Positions 1,465 through 20,995 of a stretch of DNA of 64,000 nt are shown one piece after another. The stretch covers positions 30,715 to 94,714 of the forward strand of contig CAZKVR010000003.1 of NCBI GenBank assembly GCA_964556395.1. Direction: 5' to 3'. The position numbers and the translations under genes are program-made. This DNA is from an uncultured Methanosarcinales archaeon (lineage in GTDB: Archaea; Nanobdellota; Nanobdellia; Woesearchaeales; WJKR01). Position 1 is the first letter of the stretch; the number at the start of each line of letters is the position of its first letter. Under the pieces are notes generated by a model. That model ran no database searches. It was given only the letters and a program-made list of their open reading frames with translations, and was not told where the DNA came from.

Positions 1465-2598
1465 ATGACACGGCCAAGCCTCACGACCGATGAGCGGAGA
1501 GCGGACACGTTCTTCGACCTCGTCGCGGACAGGCTCACCTTCTCTGACATCAACCCTACGAACGAGAAGGGCGCCAAGCAACGCTTCCTCAAGCACGGCA
1601 AGGAACCCCAGTTCCGGTACGGCCAGCCGGCCGAGGAGCTCAGCCAGTTCAAGGCAGGCCTCGAACTCCTCCCAAAGCTCGAGGACGGCGTCGCAGCAAG
1701 CATCCTCAACGCCAAGCAACAAGAACTCATCAAGAAGATCCGATTGTTGGAACGCCTCGGCACGCCGGGGTTCGCCACCACCAGCGCGCAGCTCTACCCA
1801 TTGCCGGACAAGAAGCTGCTCGAACAAGCCCGCACACTCCTACAACTGCCGCCGTCAGGCAAGGCGAAACGCATCACCCGCATAGAAGGCATCAAGCTGA
1901 TACGGAAAGTGCTCGACCACCTAGGCCTCAAGTACGCGATCAGGAGCAGCCCCATACTCACGTCAGCCCGGATGCAAGCAAGCAACAGGCTGCTCGAGCT
2001 CAAGAAACGCGAACGGTTCTCGGAAGACTACCTGAAACGGCTCGTCGTCCACGAGATCGGCACACACGCTCTCCGAGGCGAGAACGGAGCCCTACAACCA
2101 TTGAGAGTGTTCAAGAATGGGTTCCCAGGATACCTCGACGCGGAGGAAGGACTGGCAGCCTACAACGAGTACCAGGCAGGACTCCTCACCAACTCAATCC
2201 TACGCAACTACGCCGGACGCGTCATCGCCATCGACACCGCCTCCAAAGCAGGCTTCAAGGAGACCTACAAGGAGTTGAGGAAGCACTTCACGCAGAAGAC
2301 GGCGTGGAAACTCGCGGTCAGGGCGAAGAGAGGACTGAAAGACACGAGCAAGCCAGGCGCGTACAGCAAGGACGCCGTCTACCTCAGAGGACTCATCACC
2401 ATACTAAAGTTCGCGGAAGGCCACGACCCGAACGAGCTCTACCACGGCAAGGTAGCGCCGAAAGACCTAGCAGCCATGAAAGGCATCCCAAGCCTGAAGA
2501 AACCAAGATTCCTCCTCCAACGCGTGCTCGACAAGGACCTCATCACACCCACTGAACGACGGGTTGAAGAAGAGACCATACGACAACTCACGAAGTGA
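1465..2598 (+). CDS. DUF1704 / QEGLA-motif zinc metalloprotease (MATCAP-like carboxypeptidase family)
   Basis: HExxH-like HEIGTHAL motif and EEGLAAYNEYQAGL (QEGLA-type) motif. Length 377 aa is typical for TIGR02421/DUF1704. Confidence 0.6.
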   Translation: MTRPSLTTDERRADTFFDLVADRLTFSDINPTNEKGAKQRFLKHGKEPQFRYGQPAEELSQFKAGLELLPKLEDGVAASILNAKQQELIKKIRLLERLGTPGFATTSAQLYPLPDKKLLEQARTLLQLPPSGKAKRITRIEGIKLIRKVLDHLGLKYAIRSSPILTSARMQASNRLLELKKRERFSEDYLKRLVVHEIGTHALRGENGALQPLRVFKNGFPGYLDAEEGLAAYNEYQAGLLTNSILRNYAGRVIAIDTASKAGFKETYKELRKHFTQKTAWKLAVRAKRGLKDTSKPGAYSKDAVYLRGLITILKFAEGHDPNELYHGKVAPKDLAAMKGIPSLKKPRFLLQRVLDKDLITPTERRVEEETIRQLTK

Positions 2599-2604
2599 CG
2601 ATCC

Positions 2605-3198
2605 ATGGAAGCGTACCGCCAGACGACAGAGTACACCGGAGCGGCCGCGACGCTCCTCACCCTGCTCCACCACTACGACCCAGAGATACCGCTGAACCGG
2701 GAGGAAGAGTTCCGCATCTGGCACCGGACCGCAAACCTGCCGGTGAGGGCGCCGTCCATCTACGGCCTCGCGCTCGTGGCGCAGGAGCACGGCCTCAGAC
2801 CACGCATCGTGCTGGAAGAGAAGGAGTACGACTACCCGGACTACCGGTTCAAAGGATACACGAAGAAAGAAGTGGACGAGGCGAAGTTCTCATCAAAACT
2901 CTACGCCAAGCGGGCGGAGGCGGCAGGCATCCCGGTCGAACAACGCGAAGTCACGCTGAAAGAAGTCCTCAAGACCCTGAATGCAAGCAAGAAGCTCCTG
3001 CTACGCGTCAACGCCGGCGTGTTCCGCAAGACAGGCAGCACGAGCAAGTACGTCGCAGTCCACCAAAAACAAGGAGTCATCAAGGCCGTCGACCCGAGGT
3101 ACGGAGAGCTCGACGTCAAGGAAGAGGAACTGGAAGAAGCCATGGCGACGCTGCAGACGAAGAAGAAACGCGACGTCCGGATGATAGTCCTGGACTAG
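2605..3198 (+). CDS. Papain-fold peptidase C39-like domain protein (DUF3335-like), catalytic Cys apparently replaced by Thr
   Basis: YRQTTEYTGAAATLLTLLHHY matches the C39 Q-x5-C-G-x-A-x-L pattern with T at the Cys position. A downstream H....G.I.AVDP resembles the C39 His/Asp region. 197 aa. Starts 6 nt after the DUF1704 stop. Confidence 0.45.
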   Translation: MEAYRQTTEYTGAAATLLTLLHHYDPEIPLNREEEFRIWHRTANLPVRAPSIYGLALVAQEHGLRPRIVLEEKEYDYPDYRFKGYTKKEVDEAKFSSKLYAKRAEAAGIPVEQREVTLKEVLKTLNASKKLLLRVNAGVFRKTGSTSKYVAVHQKQGVIKAVDPRYGELDVKEEELEEAMATLQTKKKRDVRMIVLD

Positions 3199-4439
3199 AA
3201 CGAACGGGCGGCAGCCCTATAATAGTCCTCGAGCAGCAAGACGTCGAGGTCCTCATAGTTCTTGAGGAGGTACAACGACCCGCCGCCGACCTCGACGAGC
3301 CGCTTGGACAACGCCTCGCCCTCCTCATCCAAGGAGAGGCCGACGACGCTCACCGTGACGCCCTGTTGGGCGGCCTCGCTCGCCGCCTCGAGCACCCTGG
3401 CGGTGGGGTCCTGGCCGACGGTCTGCAAGCCGTCCGTCAAAAGGAGTACGTGCTTGACGCCCTGTTCTTCCTCCAACAACCATGCGGCGTGCCTCAACGT
3501 GGCGGCGAGGTCCGTCTCCTTGCTCGCACGGGCCCGCGTGATGAGCCTCGCAAGAGAGAGGAAGTCGCTCGTCGGAGACAACGAAGCCTCAATCTCACGT
3601 CCGAACACGACGAGGCCGACGCGGTCACGCTTCCGCGTCGCCTTGAACGACAACGCGACGCCGGCCCGCTTGGCGGCGGCGAGCTTGTCACCCTTCATGC
3701 TACCGCTCGCATCCACGGCGTAGACGATGGACGCGCGCTGCCGGGACTCGCGGTCGAGGGCGACGAAGTCATCCTTGCTCAACGAATCGTGGCCGCGGCG
3801 GAGGGACTTCTTGATAGAGGCCTTCAGGGCGAGGTCTCGGAAGCGGTGGTGCTGTCGGAACGGCGCGTAGGAGGACGCCTCGCCGTCATCGGCCCGGGCG
3901 CGGCTGTCGCGCTCGCCCAAGGCACCGTGGCGGTCGAGCTTGTCAAGCTCGTCGGCGGTGAGGGCGAGGGCGGCGACGGTGAACCCTTCCTCGGTCAGGG
4001 CCTCGTCATCGTCGAGCAAGCCTTCGTCCTTGAGGGACTTGATGGACTGCTGGACGCGGTCGCGGAGCTCGCGCTGGAACTCAGGGATGCGGACGTTCTT
4101 CTCCACGTAGGACGGGTCGTAACCTGTCAATTCGCGTATGAAACGCTCGCCGTAGAGCTCTTTCGCCTGGCGGTACTGGTTGACGAGCTGGTCGGCGAGC
4201 ATGTCGGGCGAGAAGGAACGGAGGCCGTGGTTGACGCCTTCCGAGAGCATCATGCCTTCGGGTATGAAGTCCTTGTCGTTCTCCAGGACTGAGCGCATGA
4301 GCTTGTCGAGCTCCTCGCTGTGCGCGAGGGAGCCGTCGGCCTCCTCGGCCTCGCCGACGTCCCCTATGCGGGAGGACTCCTGGTCCGGCGCGTCATCCAG
4401 CCCCTCATCGTAGGAGGGGGAGGTGCTACCGGCCACCAC
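3195..4439 (-). CDS. von Willebrand factor A (VWA) domain protein with acidic N-terminal region (ChlD/CobT-like partner of an AAA+ ATPase)
   Basis: MIDAS motif DASGSM. VWA-like beta-alpha pattern in the C-terminal half. Acidic N-terminus. Confidence 0.7.
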   Translation of the reverse strand: MVAGSTSPSYDEGLDDAPDQESSRIGDVGEAEEADGSLAHSEELDKLMRSVLENDKDFIPEGMMLSEGVNHGLRSFSPDMLADQLVNQYRQAKELYGERFIRELTGYDPSYVEKNVRIPEFQRELRDRVQQSIKSLKDEGLLDDDEALTEEGFTVAALALTADELDKLDRHGALGERDSRARADDGEASSYAPFRQHHRFRDLALKASIKKSLRRGHDSLSKDDFVALDRESRQRASIVYAVDASGSMKGDKLAAAKRAGVALSFKATRKRDRVGLVVFGREIEASLSPTSDFLSLARLITRARASKETDLAATLRHAAWLLEEEQGVKHVLLLTDGLQTVGQDPTARVLEAASEAAQQGVTVSVVGLSLDEEGEALSKRLVEVGGGSLYLLKNYEDLDVLLLEDYYRAAARSF

Positions 4440-5454
4440 CCGTTTCCTTGTCGACCCGCTCCATGAGCTTGTCGTAGGAGGCGCGGACGTACGCCTCGGG
4501 GGTTGAGAGGAATTGCGCGCTCGGCTTGAGCCGTATGCGGTGCGCGATGACGGACTCGACCGCCTTGCCGAGGTCCTCGAACGACACTTCTTCGCGGCCG
4601 GCGAGGTAGGCGTTGGCCTGGGCGCGCTCGTACAGTCCGAGGGTTGCGCGGACGCTAGGGTGCTTCTCGAGCTTGTCGTCCTCGCGGAGCTCTCGCACGT
4701 AGCGTACGAGCGCTTCCTTGACTGGTTGCGGGACGGTGACGAGCCGGTGCCCTTTGGTGTCGACGATGCGCTCCTCGACCTGCTGGCTTTCAGGGTAGCG
4801 CATGCGGGCGATGTCGAACCGGTCGAGGAAGACGTCTGACAATGGTTCGGTGCTGTTGTCGTCAGGGTTCATCGTCCCTATGAATATGAAGTTGGCGTCG
4901 AAGTCGACGTCGTAGCTGCCGATGGTGAGCTTGCCCTCCTCGAGAACTTGGAGGAGGGCGTTCTGCAGTTTTTCAGAACAACGGTTCACCTCGTCGAAGA
5001 AGAGGATGCCATTATTGGCTTTGAAGATCTTGCCGGGCGTGAACGCCTCGAGGGATAGGGGGCCGTACTTCATCGCCTTGAGCGGGTCGATGTCGCCGAG
5101 GAGGTCCTCTGCGGTGAGGTCGGGGGATCCTTGCACCCTGATGAAGCGCTCCTCGCCTTTGACTTTTTTTGTGGGTGCTTCCTCGCCTTTCCGGGCGCGT
5201 GCGATGCAGTCCGGACAGAGCGGGTGGCCTGGCTTGCAGTGGAAGCCGCAATCCACCACTTCCATGGATGGGAGCAGTTTCGAGAGGTTCTTGACGAGCG
5301 TGGTCTTGCCGATGCCGGGCGGGCCTATGAGTATGAGGTGTCGGTCCATGAGGATGGCGCTCTTCAGCTCGTCCTTGACGTGGCCCTGTCCGATGATGTC
5401 CTGGAACTCCGCGTCGCGGAGGTTCTTCCCGAGGAGTGGCTGGTGCGGGGTCAT
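4426..5454 (-). CDS. AAA+ ATPase, MoxR / Mg-chelatase ChlI-like, with a Cys-rich insert
   Basis: Walker A GPPGIGKTT, Walker B ILFFDEVN, sensor FIFIGTMNP. Insert CGFHCKPGHPLCPDC. Overlaps the VWA gene by 14 nt (operon). TATA-like TTTTTTAAACC sits 25-36 nt upstream. Confidence 0.75.
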   Translation of the reverse strand: MTPHQPLLGKNLRDAEFQDIIGQGHVKDELKSAILMDRHLILIGPPGIGKTTLVKNLSKLLPSMEVVDCGFHCKPGHPLCPDCIARARKGEEAPTKKVKGEERFIRVQGSPDLTAEDLLGDIDPLKAMKYGPLSLEAFTPGKIFKANNGILFFDEVNRCSEKLQNALLQVLEEGKLTIGSYDVDFDANFIFIGTMNPDDNSTEPLSDVFLDRFDIARMRYPESQQVEERIVDTKGHRLVTVPQPVKEALVRYVRELREDDKLEKHPSVRATLGLYERAQANAYLAGREEVSFEDLGKAVESVIAHRIRLKPSAQFLSTPEAYVRASYDKLMERVDKETGGGR

Positions 5455-5496
5455 AACCGGAGCATGAAGCAGGCGCGGTTTAAAAAAGTGTGGTTT

Positions 5497-5967
5497 CTAC
5501 AGGGCGAGGAGGACGAGGCCCGCAGCCAAAGGGATAGCGAGGTTGTCGTCGAGCAACGGCTGCGGTCGTGGGAATGATTCGACGAGCATGCCGGCGAGGC
5601 TTGCGAGGAACGCTGATAGGGGTGTGAGGAGCAGCGTGAGGACGAGGAAGGACGCGGCGGTGCCTCCGAGGAGTCCCGCCCAGGTCTTCTTGCGATGCCA
5701 AGGGAGCTTTGCGGATGAGAGGTCGCGTCCGACGAGTGTCGCGAAGGCGTCGCCGTAGACGAGGACTGCGAGAGCGGGGACAGCTACGTCTTTTGGGAAG
5801 AGGGCTGTGGCCACCAAGAACCCTTTGAGGAGCGCGAGGAGTCCCCAGAGCGGGAGGTAGGCGTCCCTACGGCCATAATGCTTTTGCGCCCACGCCACGA
5901 GCCGGTGGAGGCCGAAGAGAGTTGTTATCTGGCTGAGGAGTATGAGGCCGTAGGCGGCGACGAGCAT
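5497..5967 (-). CDS. Polytopic membrane protein (possible CTP-transferase / dolichol-kinase-like DUF92 family)
   Basis: 4-5 hydrophobic helices. KTWAG...GG motif region. Weak family assignment. Confidence 0.3.
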   Translation of the reverse strand: MLVAAYGLILLSQITTLFGLHRLVAWAQKHYGRRDAYLPLWGLLALLKGFLVATALFPKDVAVPALAVLVYGDAFATLVGRDLSSAKLPWHRKKTWAGLLGGTAASFLVLTLLLTPLSAFLASLAGMLVESFPRPQPLLDDNLAIPLAAGLVLLAL

Positions 5968-6088
5968 GCCGAGATACCACCACCACTGCGCGATGCCGGT
6001 GGCCGCGAGTAAGAGGAGGAACGAACCTGTAAGGAGGTGTAGGATTTGCCGCCGGTGCTCCTTCCGCCTGATGATGTCCGCTATGGTC

Positions 6089-6571
6089 TCACGCTCCGAT
6101 GCCGAACAGGCCTCCGCCTACGAGTGTTATGAGGGTGACGAGAGATCCTGCGACGAGGACTCCTATGATGCTGGCGAGGTAGAAGTCCCGTCGCTTGACA
6201 CCGAGGAGGTATGCTCCGAGGGCGCCGGTGTACACGCCTGAACCGGGGAGGGGGATGGCGATGAAGGCTGCGACGCCGAACTCGCCGTAACGGTCGATGG
6301 ATCGCTGGATGCGGCGCTGCGCCCGCAGGACGACCTTCGAGAACCACCGGTCGAACCACGGCCAGCGCCTGGCGAGTCCTATGAGGAGGTCTACGAGCTC
6401 GTAGAGGACGAACCCGAGGAGGATGTTGGCGATGACGATGGCGAGGAGGAACGGGATGGCGGGCAGGTCCGTGGCGAGGAGGAGGAAGGGGATGCTGGCC
6501 CTGAGCTCGAGTGTGGGGAGGAGTGTGAAGAGGAGTACTAGGATGGCGTCGTGCATGGGTATTGAACGCAT
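6089..6571 (-). CDS. Small membrane protein, putative small multidrug export family (PF06695-like)
   Basis: Start trimmed to ATG 6571 (MRSIPMHD...). IPLPGSGVYTG motif. TATA TTTATAAA at 6582-6589. Confidence 0.4.
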   Translation of the reverse strand: MRSIPMHDAILVLLFTLLPTLELRASIPFLLLATDLPAIPFLLAIVIANILLGFVLYELVDLLIGLARRWPWFDRWFSKVVLRAQRRIQRSIDRYGEFGVAAFIAIPLPGSGVYTGALGAYLLGVKRRDFYLASIIGVLVAGSLVTLITLVGGGLFGIGA

Positions 6572-6717
6572 GAAAGGATGTTTATAAAACCTTGGTTCTG
6601 GAACCGCATTGCTGAGACCTCGCAAGTTATCGCTCGGAAGCGAAACATTTAAATAATGCATCTGGAAGAAGAAGGTTTCGAGAAACTCATCAGTTCGAGT
6701 GCGAGGTGAATACCACA

Positions 6718-7281
6718 ATGGCAAAGAGAGGTCAAGCAGCATTAGAATTCCTGACGACGTATGGCTGGGCATTCCTCATCATCCTCGTGATGATTGGAGC
6801 GTTCGCGTACTTCGACATACTGAACCCACAACGATTGTTCCCGGGCAAGTGCCAGTTCCAGGTGGGCATCACGTGCGACCAGTACAAGATAGCCAACCCC
6901 GGCGGTGTCGGAGCAGGTGATGACCCGTACGTCCAGTTCGAGTTGAAGAACCAGAAAGGCAGCAGCATCTATGTAAGTAACCTCGAGTATTATAATCCCA
7001 ACTCCGGCGAATATGAGGCGTGCAGCCAAGAAGATGGAGGGTCTGGTATAGGTACATACGGAGATATAGATCAGGTGTTGGATGAAACCACCGGTACTGA
7101 CATCTCAGCTGAGCGACGGTTCGACATGACGTGCGTCTTCGATGACGAACATGTCGACGCCGTCGTCGGTGACAAGGCCACCGTCAAGGTACGGTTCTGG
7201 TACAACGAAGGCGCCACCGCTGACGATGAGTACGAGAAGCCAATGGAAGGCAGCATCGTATCCGACGTGACGGATAGTTAA
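6718..7281 (+). CDS. Archaeal type IV pilin with class III signal peptide
   Basis: MAKRGQAALEFLTTYGWAFLIILVMIGAFAY is a canonical [KR]GQ-A/S-x-EFL class III signal. Cys-containing secreted domain. Oligo-T terminator follows. Confidence 0.75.
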   Translation: MAKRGQAALEFLTTYGWAFLIILVMIGAFAYFDILNPQRLFPGKCQFQVGITCDQYKIANPGGVGAGDDPYVQFELKNQKGSSIYVSNLEYYNPNSGEYEACSQEDGGSGIGTYGDIDQVLDETTGTDISAERRFDMTCVFDDEHVDAVVGDKATVKVRFWYNEGATADDEYEKPMEGSIVSDVTDS

Positions 7282-7287
7282 AGACCC

Positions 7288-7312
7288 TTTTTTCTTTCTC
7301 TTTTTTTCTTCT
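7288..7312 (+). terminator. Oligo-T archaeal terminator
   Basis: TTTTTTCTTTCTCTTTTTTTCTTCTC immediately after the pilin stop codon. Confidence 0.5.
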
Positions 7313-7340
7313 CTCCACACCGACCCACAGGCGATACCAT

Positions 7341-7805
7341 ATGAATCCGAAAGCCCAGCAGTCCTTGGAGTTCATGGTCACCTACGGGTGGATGATCCTC
7401 ATGGCAGGCGCTGTAGCAGGCTCCCTCGCCTACTTCGGCGTGTTTGACTCCGACCAGAACCTCCCGTCCCAGTGCAACCTCGGCTTCGACTTCTCCTGCG
7501 AACAGTTCGTCCTGTTCGACAACGGCACGGTGCGCGTGGAAGCGGGGAACAAGGCCGGCGAACCCTTGGAAGTGGAGTCGTTCAGGTGCACCTACCCTGA
7601 CGAGAGCGTGGACTCCACCACGTATGGCGGCGCCGAGTGGCTGCCGGGCGACACGTTCAACCTCGCCTGCAACCCCTCAGGGGGAATCCTCACAAATGGT
7701 GAGCGTGAGAAAGTGAAGGTGAAGCTGGAGTACCGCAAGAAAAGCGGAGGCTTCACCAAGCACGTCGAAGGAGACGTCGCCGCCATCGTGGCGGAGAGCT
7801 CTTAA
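7341..7805 (+). CDS. Archaeal type IV pilin with class III signal peptide (tandem second pilin)
   Basis: MNPKAQQSLEFMVTYGWMILMAGAVAGSLAY. Similar architecture to the upstream pilin. Confidence 0.75.
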   Translation: MNPKAQQSLEFMVTYGWMILMAGAVAGSLAYFGVFDSDQNLPSQCNLGFDFSCEQFVLFDNGTVRVEAGNKAGEPLEVESFRCTYPDESVDSTTYGGAEWLPGDTFNLACNPSGGILTNGEREKVKVKLEYRKKSGGFTKHVEGDVAAIVAESS

Positions 7806-12773: not shown

Positions 12774-13091
12774 ATGCCTTCGAGTTTCGCGGAGCGGGTG
12801 TACGAGAAGTTGCGCGAGGTTCCTCGCGGCAGCGTGACTACTTATCAAGAGCTCGCAAAAGCGTTAGGTATCAAGTCATCCCAGGCGGTGGGCCAGGCGT
12901 TGCGGCGGAACCCGTACGCGCCGGAGGTGCCTTGCCACCGTGTCGTCCGGAGTGACGGCGGCATCGGCGGGTTCCAAGGATGCTTCGAGGGGAGTCCTGT
13001 GGACAGGAAGATACGATTGTTGCGGGAAGAAGGGGTAGAGATAGAAGACGGAAAAGTGAAAGGGTTCGAAAAAAAGAGATACGTGTTCTAG
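12774..13091 (+). CDS. Methylated-DNA-protein-cysteine methyltransferase, DNA-binding/active-site domain only (Ogt C-domain-like)
   Basis: PCHRVV active-site motif. 105 aa single-domain form. Confidence 0.75.
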   Translation: MPSSFAERVYEKLREVPRGSVTTYQELAKALGIKSSQAVGQALRRNPYAPEVPCHRVVRSDGGIGGFQGCFEGSPVDRKIRLLREEGVEIEDGKVKGFEKKRYVF

Positions 13092-14017
13092 GGCCGCTTC
13101 TTCTTCGCCTTGCGGATCTCCTTCTCGAGGTCGAGCTCGTCCAACAACTCCTTGTACCGGTTGCGGATGGTGACTTCCGTCACGCCGGCGACGTCGGCGA
13201 CCTCGCGTTGGGTCCTTTTCTCGCCGTTGATCAGGGCCGCCACGTACAAGGCAGCAGAGGCGATGCCGGTCGGGCCGCGTCCGGAGGTGAGCTCGACGCT
13301 CTGCGCCTCCTCGATTATCTCGACGCTCTTGCTCTGCGTCTCGGCCGAGAGCTTCAACGCGGATGCGAACCGGGCGATGTAGTCGGCAGGGTTGGACGGG
13401 AGTATCTTGATGCCGAGTTCTCTCGTTATGAAGCGGTAGGTGCGTCCGATCTCCTTCTTCTCGATTGACGACGCTTCCGACAACTCATCGAGTGTCCGGG
13501 GGACGTCGTGGCGCCTGCAGGCGGCGTACAACGCTCCTGAGACGACGCTCTCCATGCTCCTGCCGCGGACGAGGCCTTTCTGGACGGCAAGAGTATATAT
13601 CCTGCTCGCCTCCTCTTCCACTGAGGATGGCAGGCGTAAATAGGATGATACTCGTTTGAGCTCTCCCAACGCGAGCTTGAGGTTTCGCTCGATGGCGGTG
13701 CTGATACGCTGCTGCCACTTGCGCAACCTGAAGAACTTGTTCTTGCTCTTGCCTTCGAGCCTGTAGAAGTCCGACTTGGTGCCCACATCGGTGCCGAGCC
13801 CTTGGTCGAACTGGGTGTAGGACATGGGCGCACCGGTGCGTCGCTTGCGCTCCGCCGCTTCGGAGTCGAACTCGCGCCACTCCTGGTCGAAGTCGACCAT
13901 CTTCTCCTCGACGACGAGTCCGCAGTCCTTGCAGATAATCTCTCCCTTGTCATGGTTCCAGAGCAGGTTGAGCGACCCGCACTCCGGACACTTCTTGACG
14001 AATCCCGTCATGCTCAT
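13088..14017 (-). CDS. tfb: Transcription initiation factor IIB (TFB)
   Basis: Start trimmed to MSMTGFVKKCPECGS.. (N-terminal Zn ribbon CPECG...CKDCG). Cyclin-fold repeats. 310 aa. Confidence 0.9.
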   Translation of the reverse strand: MSMTGFVKKCPECGSLNLLWNHDKGEIICKDCGLVVEEKMVDFDQEWREFDSEAAERKRRTGAPMSYTQFDQGLGTDVGTKSDFYRLEGKSKNKFFRLRKWQQRISTAIERNLKLALGELKRVSSYLRLPSSVEEEASRIYTLAVQKGLVRGRSMESVVSGALYAACRRHDVPRTLDELSEASSIEKKEIGRTYRFITRELGIKILPSNPADYIARFASALKLSAETQSKSVEIIEEAQSVELTSGRGPTGIASAALYVAALINGEKRTQREVADVAGVTEVTIRNRYKELLDELDLEKEIRKAKKKRP

Positions 14018-14057
14018 AAACCCCCGGTGTTCATCACAATATGGAGTGATGACAATA

Positions 14058-14093
14058 AATTTATAAAAGAACATACAGGCTAGTATATAAATG
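14058..14093. promoter_or_regulatory. AT-rich divergent promoter region with two TATA-like boxes (TTTATAAAAG, TAGTATATAAATG)
   Basis: Lies between tfb (minus) and the pilin-like gene (plus). Confidence 0.35.
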
Positions 14094-14215
14094 TTTCGTT
14101 TTTTACTGCTTAACTTTTTATTGATTGCGGAAACCTTAAAAACCAACAGGATGTGTCTTCACTCTTAAAGAAAGAGGAAGTTTTTTATAACAGCAACACG
14201 GAAGCCATCAACGGA

Positions 14216-14716: not shown

Positions 14717-15193
14717 ATGACGTCCCAGATACTGCTTGGCTGGTCAGGCCTCCTCGGCGTGATCGCAGGCCTCATCGTCAGCGCCGCGGCGACGGAAGAG
14801 CTATGGCCGGCGAGACGCATCCTCAGGATGACGCACGACATCGGATTCCTCCTCACAGCAGGACTCTTCCTCCACGCCGCAGGCTACCTCGCCACGACAG
14901 TCGGACTGCTCATACTCACTGCCGCGCTCGCCACGATGCCATCACGACAGGCACACCAACTCACCACGTTGCTCTTCACCGTCATCCTCATCCTGGCATG
15001 GGAGATGCCGTTGTTCACGTCTATCGCCGGACTCTTCCTCATCAGCCACATGGCGGCGGCAGGCGAGTGGCTGGCAAGGAACCCGAAGCTGGTGAAGAAG
15101 GGCTGCCTGTCCAGGACCACGCTATCCGCGGCGGCGAGGGAGTTCGCCCTCACCATCACACCACCCTTGGCGTTGCTGCCGCTCGTCATCTGA
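14717..15193 (+). CDS. Hypothetical polytopic membrane protein
   Basis: Four hydrophobic helices. No recognisable motif. Confidence 0.4.
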   Translation: MTSQILLGWSGLLGVIAGLIVSAAATEELWPARRILRMTHDIGFLLTAGLFLHAAGYLATTVGLLILTAALATMPSRQAHQLTTLLFTVILILAWEMPLFTSIAGLFLISHMAAAGEWLARNPKLVKKGCLSRTTLSAAAREFALTITPPLALLPLVI

Positions 15194-15201
15194 GATGCCT
15201 T

Positions 15202-15888
15202 ATGGCCAAGCTCACCGAGAAGGAATGCGCGGACGGCTCGCACACTTTCCACAACGAGGAGGTCGGCGAGTCGTACCACACGCCGCTCGGGGCGGCGATG
15301 GAAGCCCGGGAGAAATACGTCCCGCCGTGCGAGGTCAAGAAACGCTGCAAGGGTGGACCGATCAACGTCCTCGACGTCTGCTACGGGCTCGGGTACAACA
15401 CCGCGGCGCTGATAGAGGCCGCGAAGAAAAATTCTCCTGATTGCGACCTCACCGTCTACGGTCTGGAGCTCGACAAGGATATTGTGGAGAGGAGTCTCGA
15501 CCTGCCATTCCCGTTCGCGCACGAGGACCTCTTCAAGAGACTCAACAGGAACTATGATGAAAGGAAGCGAGCATTCACGATGAAGGGAGGCCGCACCACC
15601 ATCACTGTGCTGATAGGAGACGCGAAGGAACGCCTCAACGAGGTGCCGTTCCTGGCGGACGTCGTGCTGTTCGACCCGTTCTCGCCGCGCAAGGCGCCGG
15701 AGATGTGGACGGAAGAATTCTTCAAGGATATTTATGAGAAGTGCGCTGAAGGCGCGGTGCTCGTCACCTACTCGTGCGCCCGCGCCGCACGGGAGGTGAT
15801 GGCGGCTGCCGGCTTCAAGGTCGAGGACGGTCCGGTCGTGGGACGGCGTGGGCCGGCCACCGTCGGACGAGTATCAAAAGATACTTAA
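15202..15888 (+). CDS. SAM-dependent methyltransferase, MnmC N-terminal-like (DUF752/Methyltransf_30)
   Basis: Start trimmed to ATG 15202 (MAKLTEKE). LFDPFSPRKAPEMWTEEFF matches the DGFSPxKNPElW signature of the MnmC-like methyltransferase domain. Confidence 0.55.
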   Translation: MAKLTEKECADGSHTFHNEEVGESYHTPLGAAMEAREKYVPPCEVKKRCKGGPINVLDVCYGLGYNTAALIEAAKKNSPDCDLTVYGLELDKDIVERSLDLPFPFAHEDLFKRLNRNYDERKRAFTMKGGRTTITVLIGDAKERLNEVPFLADVVLFDPFSPRKAPEMWTEEFFKDIYEKCAEGAVLVTYSCARAAREVMAAAGFKVEDGPVVGRRGPATVGRVSKDT

Positions 15889-15914
15889 AGGGAGTCCGTT
15901 TCGTCACTCTAGCC

Positions 15915-15988
15915 GTCCCCGTGGTGTAGCCTGGATAGCATTGTGGCTTGCGGAGCCATAGACCCGGGTTCGAATCCCGGCGGGGACA
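15915..15988 (+). tRNA. tRNA-Arg (anticodon GCG)
   Basis: Manual fold: acceptor stem GTCCCCG/CGGGGAC, D arm, anticodon stem GTGGC/GCCAT, loop TTGCGGA (U33, GCG, purine 37), T arm CCGGG-TTCGAAT-CCCGG, discriminator A. No encoded CCA. Confidence 0.85.
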
Positions 15989-16145
15989 TCCGAAAAAACA
16001 CAATCTTTAAATAGAACCTGCGGACTATATATCGATTGTTGGGGTAATACAACATATAGTAAGCGAAAATATTGATATGAAATAAATTTTACAATATCTA
16101 AACGCTTATATGCCCAACACACCACAACAGACAAGGGGAGACGTG

Positions 16146-16418
16146 ATGGCCAGGAACAAGAAAATCTTCAACACATTCTTCAGGGAGAAGCCAGCGATGA
16201 TGCTTATCACCCTGCTCAACAAGAACAACGACATCTACGCCTCATCACTCGCCAAGACGGTCGACTGCACGTACAGCCACGTCGTCAAGATACTGCAAGA
16301 GATGCACAAGGCAGACCTCATAGCCTTCGAGAAGCAAGGACGCCTCAAGGTCCTCACACTCACCAAGAAAGGGCAAGGAATCGCAGAGAAAATCGACGCA
16401 ATCAGGAACGCGCTCTAA
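16146..16418 (+). CDS. Small winged-helix transcriptional regulator (MarR/PadR/ArsR-like)
   Basis: Start trimmed to MARNKKIF. HTH SLAKTVDCTYSHVVKILQEM followed by a wing. TATA CTTATATG sits about 33 nt upstream. Confidence 0.55.
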   Translation: MARNKKIFNTFFREKPAMMLITLLNKNNDIYASSLAKTVDCTYSHVVKILQEMHKADLIAFEKQGRLKVLTLTKKGQGIAEKIDAIRNAL

Positions 16419-16422
16419 AAAC

Positions 16423-16599
16423 TCATTCTTCGAACTCCTCATCAGAAAGGTCGAACTCACGGCAGCCGAAGCACGGCGTAGCGAGGAAGCCATCGACCAT
16501 CTTCTTAGGATCGAAACAACAACCCTTGATATGGAACTCGCAACCGCTGCACTCAGGAGCGGACTGCTCCTGAGGTCCGAACAGAGAACGCCGAGCCAT
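16423..16599 (-). CDS. 58-aa zinc-ribbon protein with acidic C-terminal tail (MARRSLFGPQEQSAPECSGCEFHIKGCCFDPKKMVDGFLATPCFGCREFDLSDEEFEE). LysW-like candidate carrier or RimK substrate. Missing from ORF track (<60 aa).
   Basis: My own translation of the minus strand. CxxC ... CC ... CxxC. The C-terminus ...DLSDEEFEE ends in Glu. TATA CTTTTTATACC at 16621-16631 is 22-31 nt upstream. Located 40 nt downstream of the RimK-like stop. Confidence 0.55.
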   Translation of the reverse strand: MARRSLFGPQEQSAPECSGCEFHIKGCCFDPKKMVDGFLATPCFGCREFDLSDEEFEE

Positions 16600-16620
16600 G
16601 AAAAAGCAAACATACGAAGA

Positions 16621-16631
16621 GGTATAAAAAG
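16621..16631 (-). promoter_or_regulatory. TATA box (CTTTTTATACC on the minus strand) for the small zinc-ribbon gene
   Basis: Positioned for a leaderless transcript starting near 16599. Confidence 0.45.
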
Positions 16632-16638
16632 GTTGCGG

Positions 16639-17736
16639 TCACATGAACCGCTTGACCGACAACGAACCCTTGGAAGCGACGAGCTTGACAGAGTCAGAAT
16701 CATTGAACCCAGTCAACTTGGACACCAACTCCGGAAGGAGGATGCGAGCACCCCGGAAATCAAGCTGGGTGATGAGCTCCTGCTCCCGACCACCATCGCC
16801 ATTCTCGCTGTTGAGATCAGCCATGATCTCCTTCGTCTGACGATCCTTACGCGAATCGGACAACTCCCTAGTCTTATCATACAAGTACTGCGCGATCAAG
16901 TCAGCCACGTCGACCTTCGTCGCCTCCGTGATGCCCTGCAAGCCAGGGCTGATGTTGATCTCGATGATAAGAGGACCGGTAGGACCCTCAAGGATGTCGA
17001 CGCCGCAGATGTCAGCGCCGAGCGCCTTGGCGGCGTCCACCGCAATCTTCTCAGTATACGCGTCAGGGACGAACGGCTCGCCAGCGCCGCCAGCGTGGAT
17101 GTTGGCGCGCTTGTCGACACCCTTACCCTTGCGCTTCATAGCCGCAGCAACCTTGTCACCGACCACGATGAGCCGGATGTCAGTAGACTCCGTCTCGACG
17201 TACTCCTGGATGAGGAACGGCTGGTTCAAGGCATCCAACGCATCCAAGATAGTGGAAGCGCTGGCAAACGAGTCGGCGAACATGACACCCTTGCCCTGGG
17301 TGCCCTGCGGGAACTTCATGATGATAGGATAGTTCATCTTGGAAAGGACATCCTTCGCCGCCTGGATGGTCGCGGAAAGATAGGTCCGCGGCATGGGGAG
17401 GTTGCGCTGCTGCAGCACCAGCTGAGTGAGCAGCTTGTCGTGCGCGATGGTGTACGCGCTCGGAGCCAACGGCAGGAAGACCGCCTCGTTCGTCGAGAAC
17501 AAGTCGGCCAGCGCCCGGAGCAACTGGGCGTACCGGAAGGAACCCTTGATGAGCAAGCAATCATAATGCGGGACCGGCTTGCCCTCATAGAGCACCTCAG
17601 CCTTCTTGCCCGAAAAGTTGATGTCAAGGAACTTGACGTCGAGGTGGTCCACCTCGTCGAAATAATTCCTCATGGCATCGAGCGTCCACTGGGAACTCTT
17701 GCTCTTGCCTGAGATAAGCGCTGCTTTCATGATCAT
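16639..17736 (-). CDS. RimK-like ATP-grasp alpha-L-glutamate ligase family protein with a C-terminal extension of about 80 aa
   Basis: ATP-grasp motifs: KFPQGTQGKGV, IQEYVE, RANIHAGG, IIEINISPG. 365 aa, versus about 290-300 for RimK, LysX or CofF. Confidence 0.75.
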   Translation of the reverse strand: MIMKAALISGKSKSSQWTLDAMRNYFDEVDHLDVKFLDINFSGKKAEVLYEGKPVPHYDCLLIKGSFRYAQLLRALADLFSTNEAVFLPLAPSAYTIAHDKLLTQLVLQQRNLPMPRTYLSATIQAAKDVLSKMNYPIIMKFPQGTQGKGVMFADSFASASTILDALDALNQPFLIQEYVETESTDIRLIVVGDKVAAAMKRKGKGVDKRANIHAGGAGEPFVPDAYTEKIAVDAAKALGADICGVDILEGPTGPLIIEINISPGLQGITEATKVDVADLIAQYLYDKTRELSDSRKDRQTKEIMADLNSENGDGGREQELITQLDFRGARILLPELVSKLTGFNDSDSVKLVASKGSLSVKRFM

Positions 17737-17737
17737 A

Positions 17738-18094
17738 TCACCTGTTGGGATCGATGAGGAACCCTCTCTTGAGGACGTTCTGGCCGACGAGAACCTTGTA
17801 CTTCATGTGCTCACGATCGGCGAGGGTGAACTTCTCAGTCACCTCCTTGCCACGGATGCAGATGGTCGCCTCGATGACCGGCCGGAGCTTGCTGCCGTGA
17901 GCGCTCTTCACCAACCTTGATTCGACGACGGGGCCGAGCTTGAGCTGGCTCGCCAGCTTGTAATCAATGCTGCTCTTCGTAGCACCGGTATCGATGCGCG
18001 CCTTGAGCGCCTCGCTCACGCCGCCATGACGGAGCTCGACGTCCTCGACCATACCAATCAGTATCCTCTCCCTACCTTCGTCGTCCTTGATCAT
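17738..18094 (-). CDS. Retropepsin-like aspartic protease (PF05618 'putative ATP-dependent zinc protease' family), RimK-associated
   Basis: Active-site ARIDTGATKS (D-T-G-A). 118 aa. Its stop lies 1 nt before the RimK-like start. Its start overlaps the lysS stop (ATGA). Confidence 0.65.
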   Translation of the reverse strand: MIKDDEGRERILIGMVEDVELRHGGVSEALKARIDTGATKSSIDYKLASQLKLGPVVESRLVKSAHGSKLRPVIEATICIRGKEVTEKFTLADREHMKYKVLVGQNVLKRGFLIDPNR

Positions 18095-19584
18095 AATCCC
18101 TCATCCTTCTGCGGCCTCATGGTCGGGAACAATATCACATCACGGATGGAGTCGTTCCCGGTGAATAACATGACGAAACGGTCGATACCCAACCCGACGC
18201 CGCTCGTCGGCGGCATACCATGCTCCAGGGACGCGAGGAAATCCTCATCCATAGGATGGGCCTCCTCGTCGCCGCCGCGTCCGCGCTCGGCCTGCTCTTC
18301 CAGCAGCCTTCGCTGCACGACGGGGTCATTGAGCTCAGAATAGGCGTTGCCCATCTCCCAACCGTTGATGTAGACCTCGAACTGCTCGACATAGCGATCA
18401 TCACCATCTCGCCGGGCTTTGGCGAGCGGGGTGTTCTCGACAGGGTAGTCCCTGACGAACGTTGGTTGTATGAGCTTGTCCTCGCACTTCCCCTCAAAGA
18501 TAGCGACGACGAGCATGCCCCAGCTGCTGGCGTCGTACTCGATACCTTCCTTGTCGCAGTAGTCGAGGAGGTCTTCCCGCGACATGCTGTCGATGTCGAG
18601 GCCAGTGTGCTCGTTGACAACCGCGGCGACCGTCATCCGCCTCCAAGGGGGTTTGAGATCTATCTCCTTGCCGTCGAACGTAATCTTCGTCGTGCCGAGG
18701 ACGTCCTGGGCGGCCTTGCTCACCGCATCCTCCACGAGGCGCATGCCATCGTTGTAGTCACCGTAGGCCTGATACCATTCCACTTGGGTGAACTCAGGGT
18801 TGTGGGTGCGGTCGATGCCTTCGTTGCGGAAATCCTTGACGAACTCGTAGACGCGCTCGAAGCCACCCACCAAGAGCCGTTTGAGGTAGAGCTCGTTGCT
18901 GATCCGGAGGTAGAGCCTCATGTCGAGGGCGTTGTGATGGGTGACGAACGGCCGGGCGTTGGCGCCGCCGTACACGGGCTGGAGGGTCGGCGTCTCGACC
19001 TCGAGGAAGCCGTTGCCGTCCAGCGTCTGTCGGATGCTCTTGATGATCTTCGAACGCTTGATGAACGTCTCACGCACCTCGGGATTCATGATGAGGTCGA
19101 GGTATCGCTGGCGGTAGCGGAGCTCGGTGTCCTGGAGGCCGTGGTACTTCTCAGGGAGGGGCCGGAGGGACTTGGCGAGGAGCTCGAGGCTCTTGGCGCG
19201 GACGGTGACCTCGCCTGTCTTGGTGGCGAATACCGTGCCGTCGGCACCGATGATGTCGCCGATGTCGAGCTTCTTGAAACGCTTGTACTGCTCGTCTCCG
19301 AGCTCGTCCTTGCGGACGTAGAGCTGGATCCTTCCGGTGGCGTCCTGGATGGTGCAGAATGAGGCCTTGCCCATCACGCGCAACGCCATGATGCGGCCGG
19401 CCACGACGACTTCCTGCTCGGTCGTCGCTTCAGGCTCGAGGCCCTTATGGGCTTCCTGGACCTGGGCGGCGTCGTGGGTCTTGCCGTACCGGTATGGGTA
19501 CGGGTTGACACCATTTTCGAGGAGCGCCTCGCGCTTCCTCATACGTTCCTGTACGAGCCGGTGCTCGTTCTGTTCCTCCACCAT
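18091..19584 (-). CDS. lysS: Lysyl-tRNA synthetase, class II
   Basis: N-terminal OB anticodon-binding domain. Class II motifs FRNEG, GLGIDR. 497 aa. Confidence 0.95.
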   Translation of the reverse strand: MVEEQNEHRLVQERMRKREALLENGVNPYPYRYGKTHDAAQVQEAHKGLEPEATTEQEVVVAGRIMALRVMGKASFCTIQDATGRIQLYVRKDELGDEQYKRFKKLDIGDIIGADGTVFATKTGEVTVRAKSLELLAKSLRPLPEKYHGLQDTELRYRQRYLDLIMNPEVRETFIKRSKIIKSIRQTLDGNGFLEVETPTLQPVYGGANARPFVTHHNALDMRLYLRISNELYLKRLLVGGFERVYEFVKDFRNEGIDRTHNPEFTQVEWYQAYGDYNDGMRLVEDAVSKAAQDVLGTTKITFDGKEIDLKPPWRRMTVAAVVNEHTGLDIDSMSREDLLDYCDKEGIEYDASSWGMLVVAIFEGKCEDKLIQPTFVRDYPVENTPLAKARRDGDDRYVEQFEVYINGWEMGNAYSELNDPVVQRRLLEEQAERGRGGDEEAHPMDEDFLASLEHGMPPTSGVGLGIDRFVMLFTGNDSIRDVILFPTMRPQKDEGL

Positions 19585-20002: not shown

Positions 20003-20995
20003 TTATAACCGTTGCCCTTTGTCTGCGGCCGATGGCGTGTCGAAGAGCGTTGAAAGCTCGTCCACCCTGTAGAAGAGCGACTTCGCCTTCTCTACTGCCT
20101 TGGCGACCTTGATGGTAGACTCGTGGCGTTCCTGATATGCGTCGAAGGCCTTGGTGAATGAGTCCCGCTCCAGGGCGAGGGTGTGGAATGACGGGACGTC
20201 CTTGCGGTAGTAGGCCGACATGAGGGCGTCGTAGTGCTTCGACAGTTTCTTCAGGAGTGCGGTGAGGTTCTGGGTCTGGTCGTCATCGAGTGGGAGGAGG
20301 AGCCTGGCGAGGCGTTTGAGCTCGTCGCCAATCTTCTCCATTGTCTGGACGAGGTCCCATACGTGGAGGAGGTCGCCGTTGGTCTGATAGGGGTCTCTCG
20401 CTCGGGGGTGGTCGAGGAGGTATTTGACTGCGCGCATGACGAGGTATGCGAGGCGGTTGACGTCCCAGTCGCGTTCGGTGATGTTGATGGGGATGTCGAT
20501 GCCCGAGAACTTGTTCGGGTCCTCGACGCGCGAGATGACGTCCATGAAGGATGACTTGAGGATGGCGTCTATCTTGCGGACGAGGTTTCCCACCTGGATG
20601 TCCCTCATGTTGAGGTAGCACCGGGCTTGGATGCGTTGGGCCGACTCCTCGATGATCTCGAGCGAGACGAGCTGGTGCATGAATTCCCGGACATCCTTGT
20701 TCTTCTTCGGGATTTCACGGCCGGTGAGGAGGACGACGTCGGCGTTGTTGAGGTATGCGCTGATGACATTGCGCTTGATGGTGTCGAGCGGTACGTTGTC
20801 GACGGAGAAACGGTAGGTGCGCTCTTCTTGGCGGCGTTCGGTCGCCCTGCCCGGGGAGAGGATTATGCCGTTCTCAGAGGTTTCGAGCCTGAGGCTGTCT
20901 CCCGGTTCCAGATTGTTCCTGGAGGCCCATGATTTCGGGAGCGAGACGATGAGCGAGTTCTTTCCGAACCTGATTATCTTGCGGTATTCTGCCAT
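20003..20995 (-). CDS. AbrB/SpoVT-like N-terminal domain fused to PhoU-like domain (phosphate uptake regulator-like)
   Basis: N-terminal swapped-hairpin region KIIRFGKNSLIVSLPKSW. Helical PhoU-like remainder. Paralogue of 56007..56870. Confidence 0.55.
   Translation of the reverse strand: MAEYRKIIRFGKNSLIVSLPKSWASRNNLEPGDSLRLETSENGIILSPGRATERRQEERTYRFSVDNVPLDTIKRNVISAYLNNADVVLLTGREIPKKNKDVREFMHQLVSLEIIEESAQRIQARCYLNMRDIQVGNLVRKIDAILKSSFMDVISRVEDPNKFSGIDIPINITERDWDVNRLAYLVMRAVKYLLDHPRARDPYQTNGDLLHVWDLVQTMEKIGDELKRLARLLLPLDDDQTQNLTALLKKLSKHYDALMSAYYRKDVPSFHTLALERDSFTKAFDAYQERHESTIKVAKAVEKAKSLFYRVDELSTLFDTPSAADKGQRL

Follow-up and report, generated by a model that had tools for sequence, protein, structure and literature searches.

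A lineage-restricted, probably metal-binding micro-protein encoded between a RimK-family ligase and a winged-helix gene in Woesearchaeota

The DNA considered here, referred to below as the window, comprises 64,000 nucleotides (nt) of contig CAZKVR010000003.1 in the archaeal assembly GCA_964556395.1, of woesearchaeal lineage, and its minus strand carries a 58-codon open reading frame (ORF) at 16423..16599, stop codon included. Read directly from the sequence as an ATG-to-stop frame, it encodes a micro-protein of 58 amino acids (aa), MARRSLFGPQEQSAPECSGCEFHIKGCCFDPKKMVDGFLATPCFGCREFDLSDEEFEE. Its ATG lies 39 nt downstream of the stop codon (16639..16641) of a RimK-like ligase gene on the same strand, and a winged-helix regulator gene converges on it from the other side. 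A preliminary description of this DNA had singled out the frame, which was missing from its list of ORFs, and the frame proved to be exactly as described there, translation included. An identical protein, annotated as hypothetical, is already in GenBank from a Candidatus Woesearchaeota metagenome-assembled genome, so that the gene was 'unlisted' only through the 60-aa cut-off of the ORF list. The acidic, glutamate-ended C terminus (...DEEFEE) that had drawn attention to the frame is present in this copy, and such an end is unique to the micro-protein among the ~74 other crude genes of the window.

The spacer between the ligase and micro-protein genes reads, on the minus strand, TGA-CCGCAACC-TTTTTATA-23 nt-ATG, and holds a putative archaeal promoter at 16623..16638 (minus strand), whose function is suggested by its archaeal promoter geometry. 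It consists of a sequence resembling a transcription factor B recognition element (BRE), CCGCAACC, at 16631..16638, and a TATA box, TTTTTATA, at 16623..16630, with the T-run of the promoter region directly after the RimK stop codon. A BRE and TATA box at this distance from the start codon are the established geometry for leaderless archaeal mRNA, and a TATA box ending 23 nt before the ATG would imply a leaderless transcript, in agreement with the earlier claim that the gene has its own TATA box at leaderless distance. Six loci, namely the window and five homologous ones (L001, L002, L043, L024 and L023), have equivalent elements 23-24 nt ahead of the ATG, and L023 keeps them although no RimK gene lies upstream there. 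On the other side of the gene, a T5 run (16417..16421, minus strand) directly follows the stop codon and may act as an archaeal oligo-T terminator; the run reaches into the stop codon of the winged-helix gene, which converges on it, and the two stop codons lie 4 nt apart. The best-supported reading of these signals is that the micro-protein gene would be transcribed independently, from its own BRE/TATA promoter.

The 58-codon frame is a real protein-coding gene under purifying selection. Queried with the 58-aa sequence alone, a word-indexed homology search returned the micro-protein itself as the sole match; phmmer, run exhaustively against 1.84 billion representative proteins, added four further clusters, and a profile search brought the family to 15 database proteins, the exhaustive protein search placing it in one clade only. 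A hidden Markov model of the family, run on six-frame translations of all fetched loci, recognised 13 other distinct loci and no others. Scanning metagenomes with the alignment of the small protein gave 154 pattern stretches, none of which was confirmed by tblastn; as JGI-derived members exist, this result carries no information, the short query probably failing the filter. Between the window and L001, the 40-codon core differs at nine synonymous and zero non-synonymous positions, and the ratio of non-synonymous to synonymous substitution rates (dN/dS) across the core is 0.11-0.32 in those comparisons in which dS is unsaturated. Conserved gene order with low dN/dS, expected if the preliminary description was right about the gene, was found in the nearest orthologous loci and only there. 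Over 15700..16900, the one match in an Rfam E-value scan was a tRNA, and no Rfam family or tRNA overlaps the micro-protein gene, whose conservation is therefore not due to a known RNA. Two apparent matches outside the family were discarded: a 511-aa repeat protein (P0126, E=1.5e-5), rejected as a low-complexity artefact, and a 13-residue stretch of Tetrahymena ribosomal protein L3 (MIKGCCVGPKKRV, E=1.4), the sole PDB profile match, rejected as chance.

Members of the family are 49-76 aa long, and 17 sequences share 14 invariant columns (C20, G26, C27, C28, F29, D30, P31, K33, G37, A40, P42, C43, F44 and C46). These delimit a core at residues 20-46, C-x6-CC-x14-C-x2-C, embedded in [KR]GCCFDPxK...G[FY]xAxPCFxC; an N-terminal segment with LFxPQE (residues 1-16) is partly conserved, and H23 is conserved in most members. 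Whereas C20, C27, C28, C43 and C46 are found in all members, C17 is missing in 7 of 17, so that the two-knuckle CxxC...CxxC ribbon is a trait of the window copy and not of the family. The CxxC...CC...CxxC spacing from which a zinc ribbon had been proposed is thus true of the window sequence, yet it does not extend to the whole family, and no zinc-ribbon profile matched the micro-protein in Pfam, NCBIfam or the PDB profile search. More broadly, no match was found in Pfam, NCBIfam or PHROGs at E<=1 or in PADLOC at E<=0.01, and the viral contig scan, PHROGs and PADLOC gave no sign of a viral or defence origin. An AlphaFold2 model built from a 15-sequence alignment was of low confidence (mean predicted local distance difference test score, pLDDT, 53.8) and returned zero Foldseek matches in the PDB; as predictions, the two results speak neither for nor against a zinc ribbon. 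The literature searched held nothing on the family, which, as judged by sequence comparison, is previously undescribed and without a match in Pfam, NCBIfam or the PDB.

Beyond the core, residues 47-58 of the window copy make up a variable acidic tail. Across the 17 members, the tails after C46 are 4-26 aa long with net charges from +1 to -9, and they end in E in eight cases, in D and F in two each, and in G, K, L, P and Q in one each. The contrast with the core is sharp even within the closest pair (window and L001), with three replacements in 12 tail codons against none in 40 core codons. The glutamate-ended members are the window, L001, L002, L003 and four others, whereas the tails of L004 (...VVKG), L043 (...NESL) and L048 (...RENF) end otherwise despite a RimK gene directly upstream. 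The best-supported reading is that the tail would behave as a disordered interaction appendage and not as a fixed ligation site.

The phyletic distribution of the gene was examined in 41 loci with full-length relatives of the window RimK (48-100% identity), absence of the ORF being judged within flanks of 3-5 kb. A RimB-like gene stands beside RimK in all 41, usually after lysS, and the micro-protein ORF is present in 10 and absent from 31, so the RimB-RimK pair would work without the micro-protein in most hosts. In all 10 ORF-bearing loci the RimK protein shares 65% identity or more with that of the window, and these loci form one clade in a neighbour-joining tree of RimK; a metagenome scan for RimK yielded only relatives of 61% identity or less, plus one fragment. 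In the sister group (L027, L006, L007, L030, L032 and L012) the winged-helix gene is nearby and there is no small ORF: the RimK and regulator genes of L006 and L030 are directly convergent, leaving no space for it, and the 124-nt gap between them in L027 is AT-rich and non-coding. This combination of a single ORF-bearing clade and an ORF-free sister group indicates that the gene was inserted once, and recently, into an arrangement that is older. On the sequences compared, the micro-protein is restricted to one Woesearchaeota subclade.

Four further loci (L023, L045, L046 and L047) bring the ORF-bearing total to 14 distinct loci, and the distance between RimK and the ORF varies among them. One gene separates the two in L024 (127 aa), L044 (277 aa) and L045 (HIT family), and two genes, one of them on the opposite strand, do so in L042, where a pyrophosphatase and a 727-aa hydrolase are inserted between RimK and the micro-protein gene (1920..4450 of that locus). 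In L023 the ORF follows the lysyl-tRNA synthetase (LysRS) gene under its own BRE/TATA, with no RimB or RimK gene in between. The winged-helix gene, by comparison, is found tail-to-tail with the ORF in each of the 13 loci with enough contig on that side, and its product is 81-100% identical across loci in which RimK is just 65-97% identical. The micro-protein and winged-helix genes overlap in L043, L045, L046 and L048. A separate observation concerns L002, which carries an unrelated gene block, including a resolvase, downstream of the winged-helix gene (4009..7400).

The gene upstream of the ORF encodes a RimK-family alpha-L-glutamate ligase of 365 aa (16639..17736, minus strand). It matches PF08443 (E=4.6e-42; 144 bits, cut-off 21) and, above its cut-off, TIGR00768 (176.6 bits, cut-off 143.4), and it falls below the equivalog cut-offs for S6 ligase, LysX, MptN and CofF. 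Against solved relatives, its sequence scores 144 bits with bacterial RimK and 66-74 bits with LysX/ArgX. The structural model (pLDDT 87.3) has RimK entries as its top fold matches in the PDB (5zct, 5zk6, 4iwx, 7qyr and 7qys), with 29-31% identity and target-normalised template modelling (TM) scores of 0.87-0.91 to the E. coli and Pseudomonas enzymes, followed by LysX/ArgX (21-24% identity) and then by graspetide ligases (17%). Sequence and model together support placing the ligase with the protein-modifying RimK enzymes and not with CofF/MptN, in keeping with its earlier description as a RimK-like ligase that might act on a protein.

The ligase differs from bacterial RimK in a C-terminal extension of ~80 aa (16639..16881, residues ~285-365), in which, according to the model, residues 277-309 form a long helix, residues 309-325 a disordered linker and residues 326-363 a small beta-beta-alpha-beta-beta domain (block-mean pLDDT 72-86); D326, R328 and P335 are invariant. 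The C-terminal 78 aa had no Pfam match at E<=10; by eye, and from the predicted topology, the extension looks AbrB/SpoVT-like. Immediately upstream of the ligase gene, a RimB/RloA-like, retropepsin-type aspartic peptidase of 118 aa with a DTGA motif (17738..18094, minus strand; PF05618, 3.3e-15) matches RloA3 (3.8e-15) and RimB (3.3e-10), both under the equivalog cut-offs. A single base separates its stop codon from the RimK ATG, and its first 4 nt overlap the end of the gene for a class II LysRS (lysS; 18091..19584, minus strand; PF00152, 1.1e-91; PF01336), the first gene of the conserved lysS-rimB-rimK string.

Given a RimK-family neighbour, the preliminary description had suggested that the micro-protein might be a LysW-like amino-group carrier, in which the terminal glutamate would bear a pathway intermediate loaded by the ATP-grasp ligase. 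The known LysW proteins (TIGR01206; PDB 3wwl, 3vpb and 5k2m) share with it a size of ~55 aa, cysteines (paired as CxxC in the window copy), an acidic glutamate-ended tail, again in the window copy, and an adjoining ligase of the RimK family. This likeness is superficial: the micro-protein cysteines follow C-x6-CC-x14-CxxC instead of two CPxCG knuckles, and its tail varies in length, charge and last residue, a terminal glutamate being missing in 9 of 17 members. As had been recognised from the EEFEE ending, the tail departs from the LysW motif, EDWGE, which is invariant in the three solved LysW proteins. No match to TIGR01206 or the Pfam LysW entries was found at E<=1, the family profile found no LysW chain at E<=10 in the PDB, which contains them, and hhalign against an alignment of three LysW sequences from solved chains (a Thermus LysW sequence being identical to 3wwl_A) gave a probability of 0.08%. 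The ligase is also nearer to RimK than to LysX/ArgX, and the neighbourhood contains no lysine or arginine biosynthesis genes, as had already been pointed out. A LysW-type carrier is rejected on this profile, motif and ligase evidence, which effectively refutes it and leaves it scarcely any probability.

The second role that had been suggested, that of a dedicated glutamylation target, would, in lineages whose tails end in acidic residues plus glutamate, have RimK add alpha-linked glutamates to the terminal glutamate and the RimB-like protease trim them, tuning the activity of the micro-protein as for bS6. To our knowledge, archaea have no ribosomal protein bS6, the sole known protein substrate of RimK, so that an archaeal RimK needs another acceptor or makes free poly-alpha-glutamate. 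The ligase is indeed of the RimK type and has a RimB-like protease as its companion. A terminal glutamate occurs in 8 of 17 members against 21.5% glutamate in the tails (nominal P=0.017, uncorrected for ancestry); it is present at 6 of the 9 loci with RimK adjacent and at 1 of the remaining 5, a difference that is not significant (one-sided Fisher ~0.13, hand calculation) and is confounded by relatedness. The glutamate-ended set includes very close relatives, and the enrichment fades and loses significance once these are collapsed. In Pseudomonas, RimB trims the polyglutamate that RimK places on RpsF and stimulates poly-alpha-glutamate synthesis (PMC11957791), and the window tail ends in ...EE like E. 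coli RpsF (GDSEE), those of its close relatives in ...DE like Pseudomonas RpsF (DNADE) (PMC11957791). The pairing of RimK with a RimB/RloA-like gene in 41 of 41 loci likewise recalls the bacterial RimK-RimB system acting on bS6/RpsF (PMC11957791, PMC7343187, PMC10092738), for which the literature found concerned bacteria only. Here, by contrast, the host is an archaeon without bS6, the ligase has its extra C-terminal region, and the micro-protein is unrelated to bS6.

The comparative data weigh against this substrate role. The ORF is missing from the 3-5 kb flanks of 31 of the 41 RimB-RimK loci and the family is confined to one clade in the exhaustive protein search, so the ligase would have another role; three tails end in G, L or F with RimK directly upstream (L004, L043 and L048); and the ORF, with a promoter of its own, is retained behind LysRS in L023 without RimB or RimK. 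With the terminal glutamate not conserved and the linkage to RimK variable, the claim of a dedicated target was not upheld: phyletic pattern, tail conservation and operon structure, as far as sequences can indicate, do not support a dedicated RimK substrate role, and we regard it as unlikely. A narrower version, in which a newly arisen zinc-binding micro-protein was captured as a RimK/RimB acceptor within the subclade, its tail being reversibly polyglutamylated and the lineages without a terminal glutamate having lost this control, appears to us rather improbable as well.

A small ORF beside an ATP-grasp ligase and a protease would also be expected of a graspetide-like precursor, that is, a ribosomally synthesised and post-translationally modified peptide into which the neighbouring ATP-grasp enzyme would introduce cross-links; the core has D30 and K33 among its invariant residues, and the ligase weakly matches the ATP-grasp peptide maturases (TIGR04187, 2.6e-5). 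However, this last match reaches 23.6 bits against a cut-off of 350, that to TIGR04185 reaches 17 bits, and the ligase is 29-31% identical to RimK compared with 17% to PsnB and likewise 17% to PruB. The same ligase is conserved in the 31 loci without any such ORF, and the ORF, with a promoter of its own, occurs without the ligase upstream in L023. The family alignment contains neither repeated Thr/Ser-Asp/Glu core motifs nor any conserved Thr or Ser. A graspetide precursor was rejected on the clade of the ligase and the missing core motifs, and we consider it very improbable.

The most constant neighbour of the ORF is the convergent winged-helix regulator (90 aa; 16146..16418, plus strand), which shows weak HVO_A0114, MarR and ArsR-type matches in Pfam; the start assigned mechanically, at 16110, probably lies 12 codons upstream of the true one. 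The micro-protein could be a partner of this regulator, either an accessory that senses or buffers metal or a small modulator, and the overlapping 3' ends of the two genes might also permit mutual antisense control. Their tail-to-tail arrangement in 13 of 13 loci, maintained even where genes are inserted between the ORF and RimK, would be consistent with such a tie, as would the 4-nt distance between stop codons in the window, the overlaps in the four loci named above, and the weak matches of the regulator to metal-responsive winged-helix proteins (MntR, 9.6e-5; ArsR/SmtB, 6.2e-4). However, these matches reflect generic winged-helix similarity and are far under the family cut-offs, the regulator is older than the ORF and occurs without it in the sister group, and convergent genes are not co-transcribed. 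The constant adjacency is alone in suggesting a functional tie, and a partnership with the regulator seems to us a rather unlikely explanation.

We consider it probable, though by no means assured, that the ORF encodes an undescribed, lineage-restricted, independently transcribed micro-protein that binds metal, and that its adjacency to RimK stems from inherited gene order, with no LysW-type function involved. Within this explanation we infer metal binding, partner binding via the tail and independence from RimK; coding under purifying selection, the invariant residues, the geometry of the promoter, the phyletic pattern and the missing LysW similarity are direct results of the comparison. The C20-x6-C27C28-x14-C43-x2-C46 core would most likely chelate a metal ion, presumably Zn2+, and thereby fold an otherwise unstable mini-domain, with C27, C28, C43 and C46 as possible ligands and either C20 or C17, together with H23, as additional or alternative ones. 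The LFxPQE segment and the fast-evolving, mostly acidic, disordered tail may offer surfaces for a partner. One insertion event, in a single Woesearchaeota subclade, would have placed the gene in the short spacer that separates the 3' end of the lysS-rimB-rimK string from the winged-helix gene. Such an insertion into an older gene string means that the adjacency to RimK is best explained by inherited local order and not by an obligatory enzyme-substrate tie.

Known small metal proteins offer partial parallels. Four-Cys metal sites can be built from a vicinal Cys-Cys and a CxxC pair, as in Rpb10/RpoN and desulforedoxin; C27, C28, C43 and C46 would fit such a site by analogy only, since the order and spacing of the cysteines differ and no homology was detected. 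HVO_0758 of Haloferax volcanii and other C(P)XCG proteins (PMC10716476) are, like the micro-protein, archaeal, shorter than 70 aa, encoded by small genes of their own and lineage-restricted, and the micro-protein, with at least four cysteines, would probably likewise bind one metal ion. It differs from them in its motifs, CSGCE and CFGCR instead of C(P)XCG, in its invariant vicinal CC pair with a single invariant CxxC, and in having no sequence similarity to the described families.

Several observations count against this explanation of a metal-binding protein independent of RimK. Its metal-binding part is read from the cysteine pattern, without a match to a known zinc-binding profile, and the micro-protein model is of low confidence and has no fold neighbour. 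The nominal, ancestry-uncorrected excess of terminal glutamates and its concentration at RimK-adjacent loci (6 of 9 against 1 of 5), both described above, point the other way, as does the presence of RimK directly upstream of the gene in 9 of 14 loci; taken together, the terminal-glutamate trend and this adjacency make functional recruitment to RimK/RimB possible in part of the clade. The gene order itself may mislead, in that the L023 genome may carry RimB and RimK at another site, and genomes without the ORF near RimK may have it at a distance.

The wider neighbourhood, which includes genes for LysRS, PTH2, transcription factor B (TFB), a methyltransferase and the winged-helix protein, calls for some corrections to the mechanical gene list. 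The nearest RNA gene is a tRNA-Arg (anticodon GCG; 15915..15988, plus strand; ARAGORN and Rfam, 58.6 bits), which explains the spurious ORFs of the 'PPGFEPGS' type listed around 15.9-16.1 kb. In the 361-aa ORF at 14803..15888 (plus strand), Pfam Methyltransf_30 (MnmC-like) matches only at residues 243-355, and the methyltransferase homologues in L001 and L043 are 224-228 aa long, so the true start lies downstream; the 5' part of this ORF overlaps a 158-aa membrane-protein gene (14717..15193). The TFB (TFIIB-like) gene at 13088..14146 (minus strand) is listed with 352 aa, against 306-309 aa in its homologues, and its true start is probably an internal Met ahead of the zinc ribbon (MTGFVKKCPECGS...). 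A 330-aa protein encoded at 20003..20995 (minus strand) has an N terminus, RFGKNSLIVSLPKSWASRNNLEPGDSLRLE, that resembles an AbrB/SpoVT-type domain; its counterpart in L003 shows a weak MazE_antitoxin match in Pfam, and the gene is kept beside PTH2 in relatives.

If the favoured explanation is correct, the cysteine-rich micro-proteins of archaea, a growing class, gain an undescribed family whose motif, with its CC pair, is unusual. The gene would also represent a clean case of a very young gene that arose once, is under strong purifying selection and has a leaderless promoter of its own, all within a spacer of ~200 nt. The RimB-RimK module with an extra C-terminal domain, conserved across Woesearchaeota that have no bS6, poses a larger question than the micro-protein, and the comparative data indicate that the general substrate or product of RimK in Woesearchaeota must be something other than the micro-protein. 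For one subclade, the micro-protein would be a candidate RimK acceptor; should its tail prove to be polyglutamylated, it would become the first RimK target protein identified in an organism that lacks ribosomal protein bS6.

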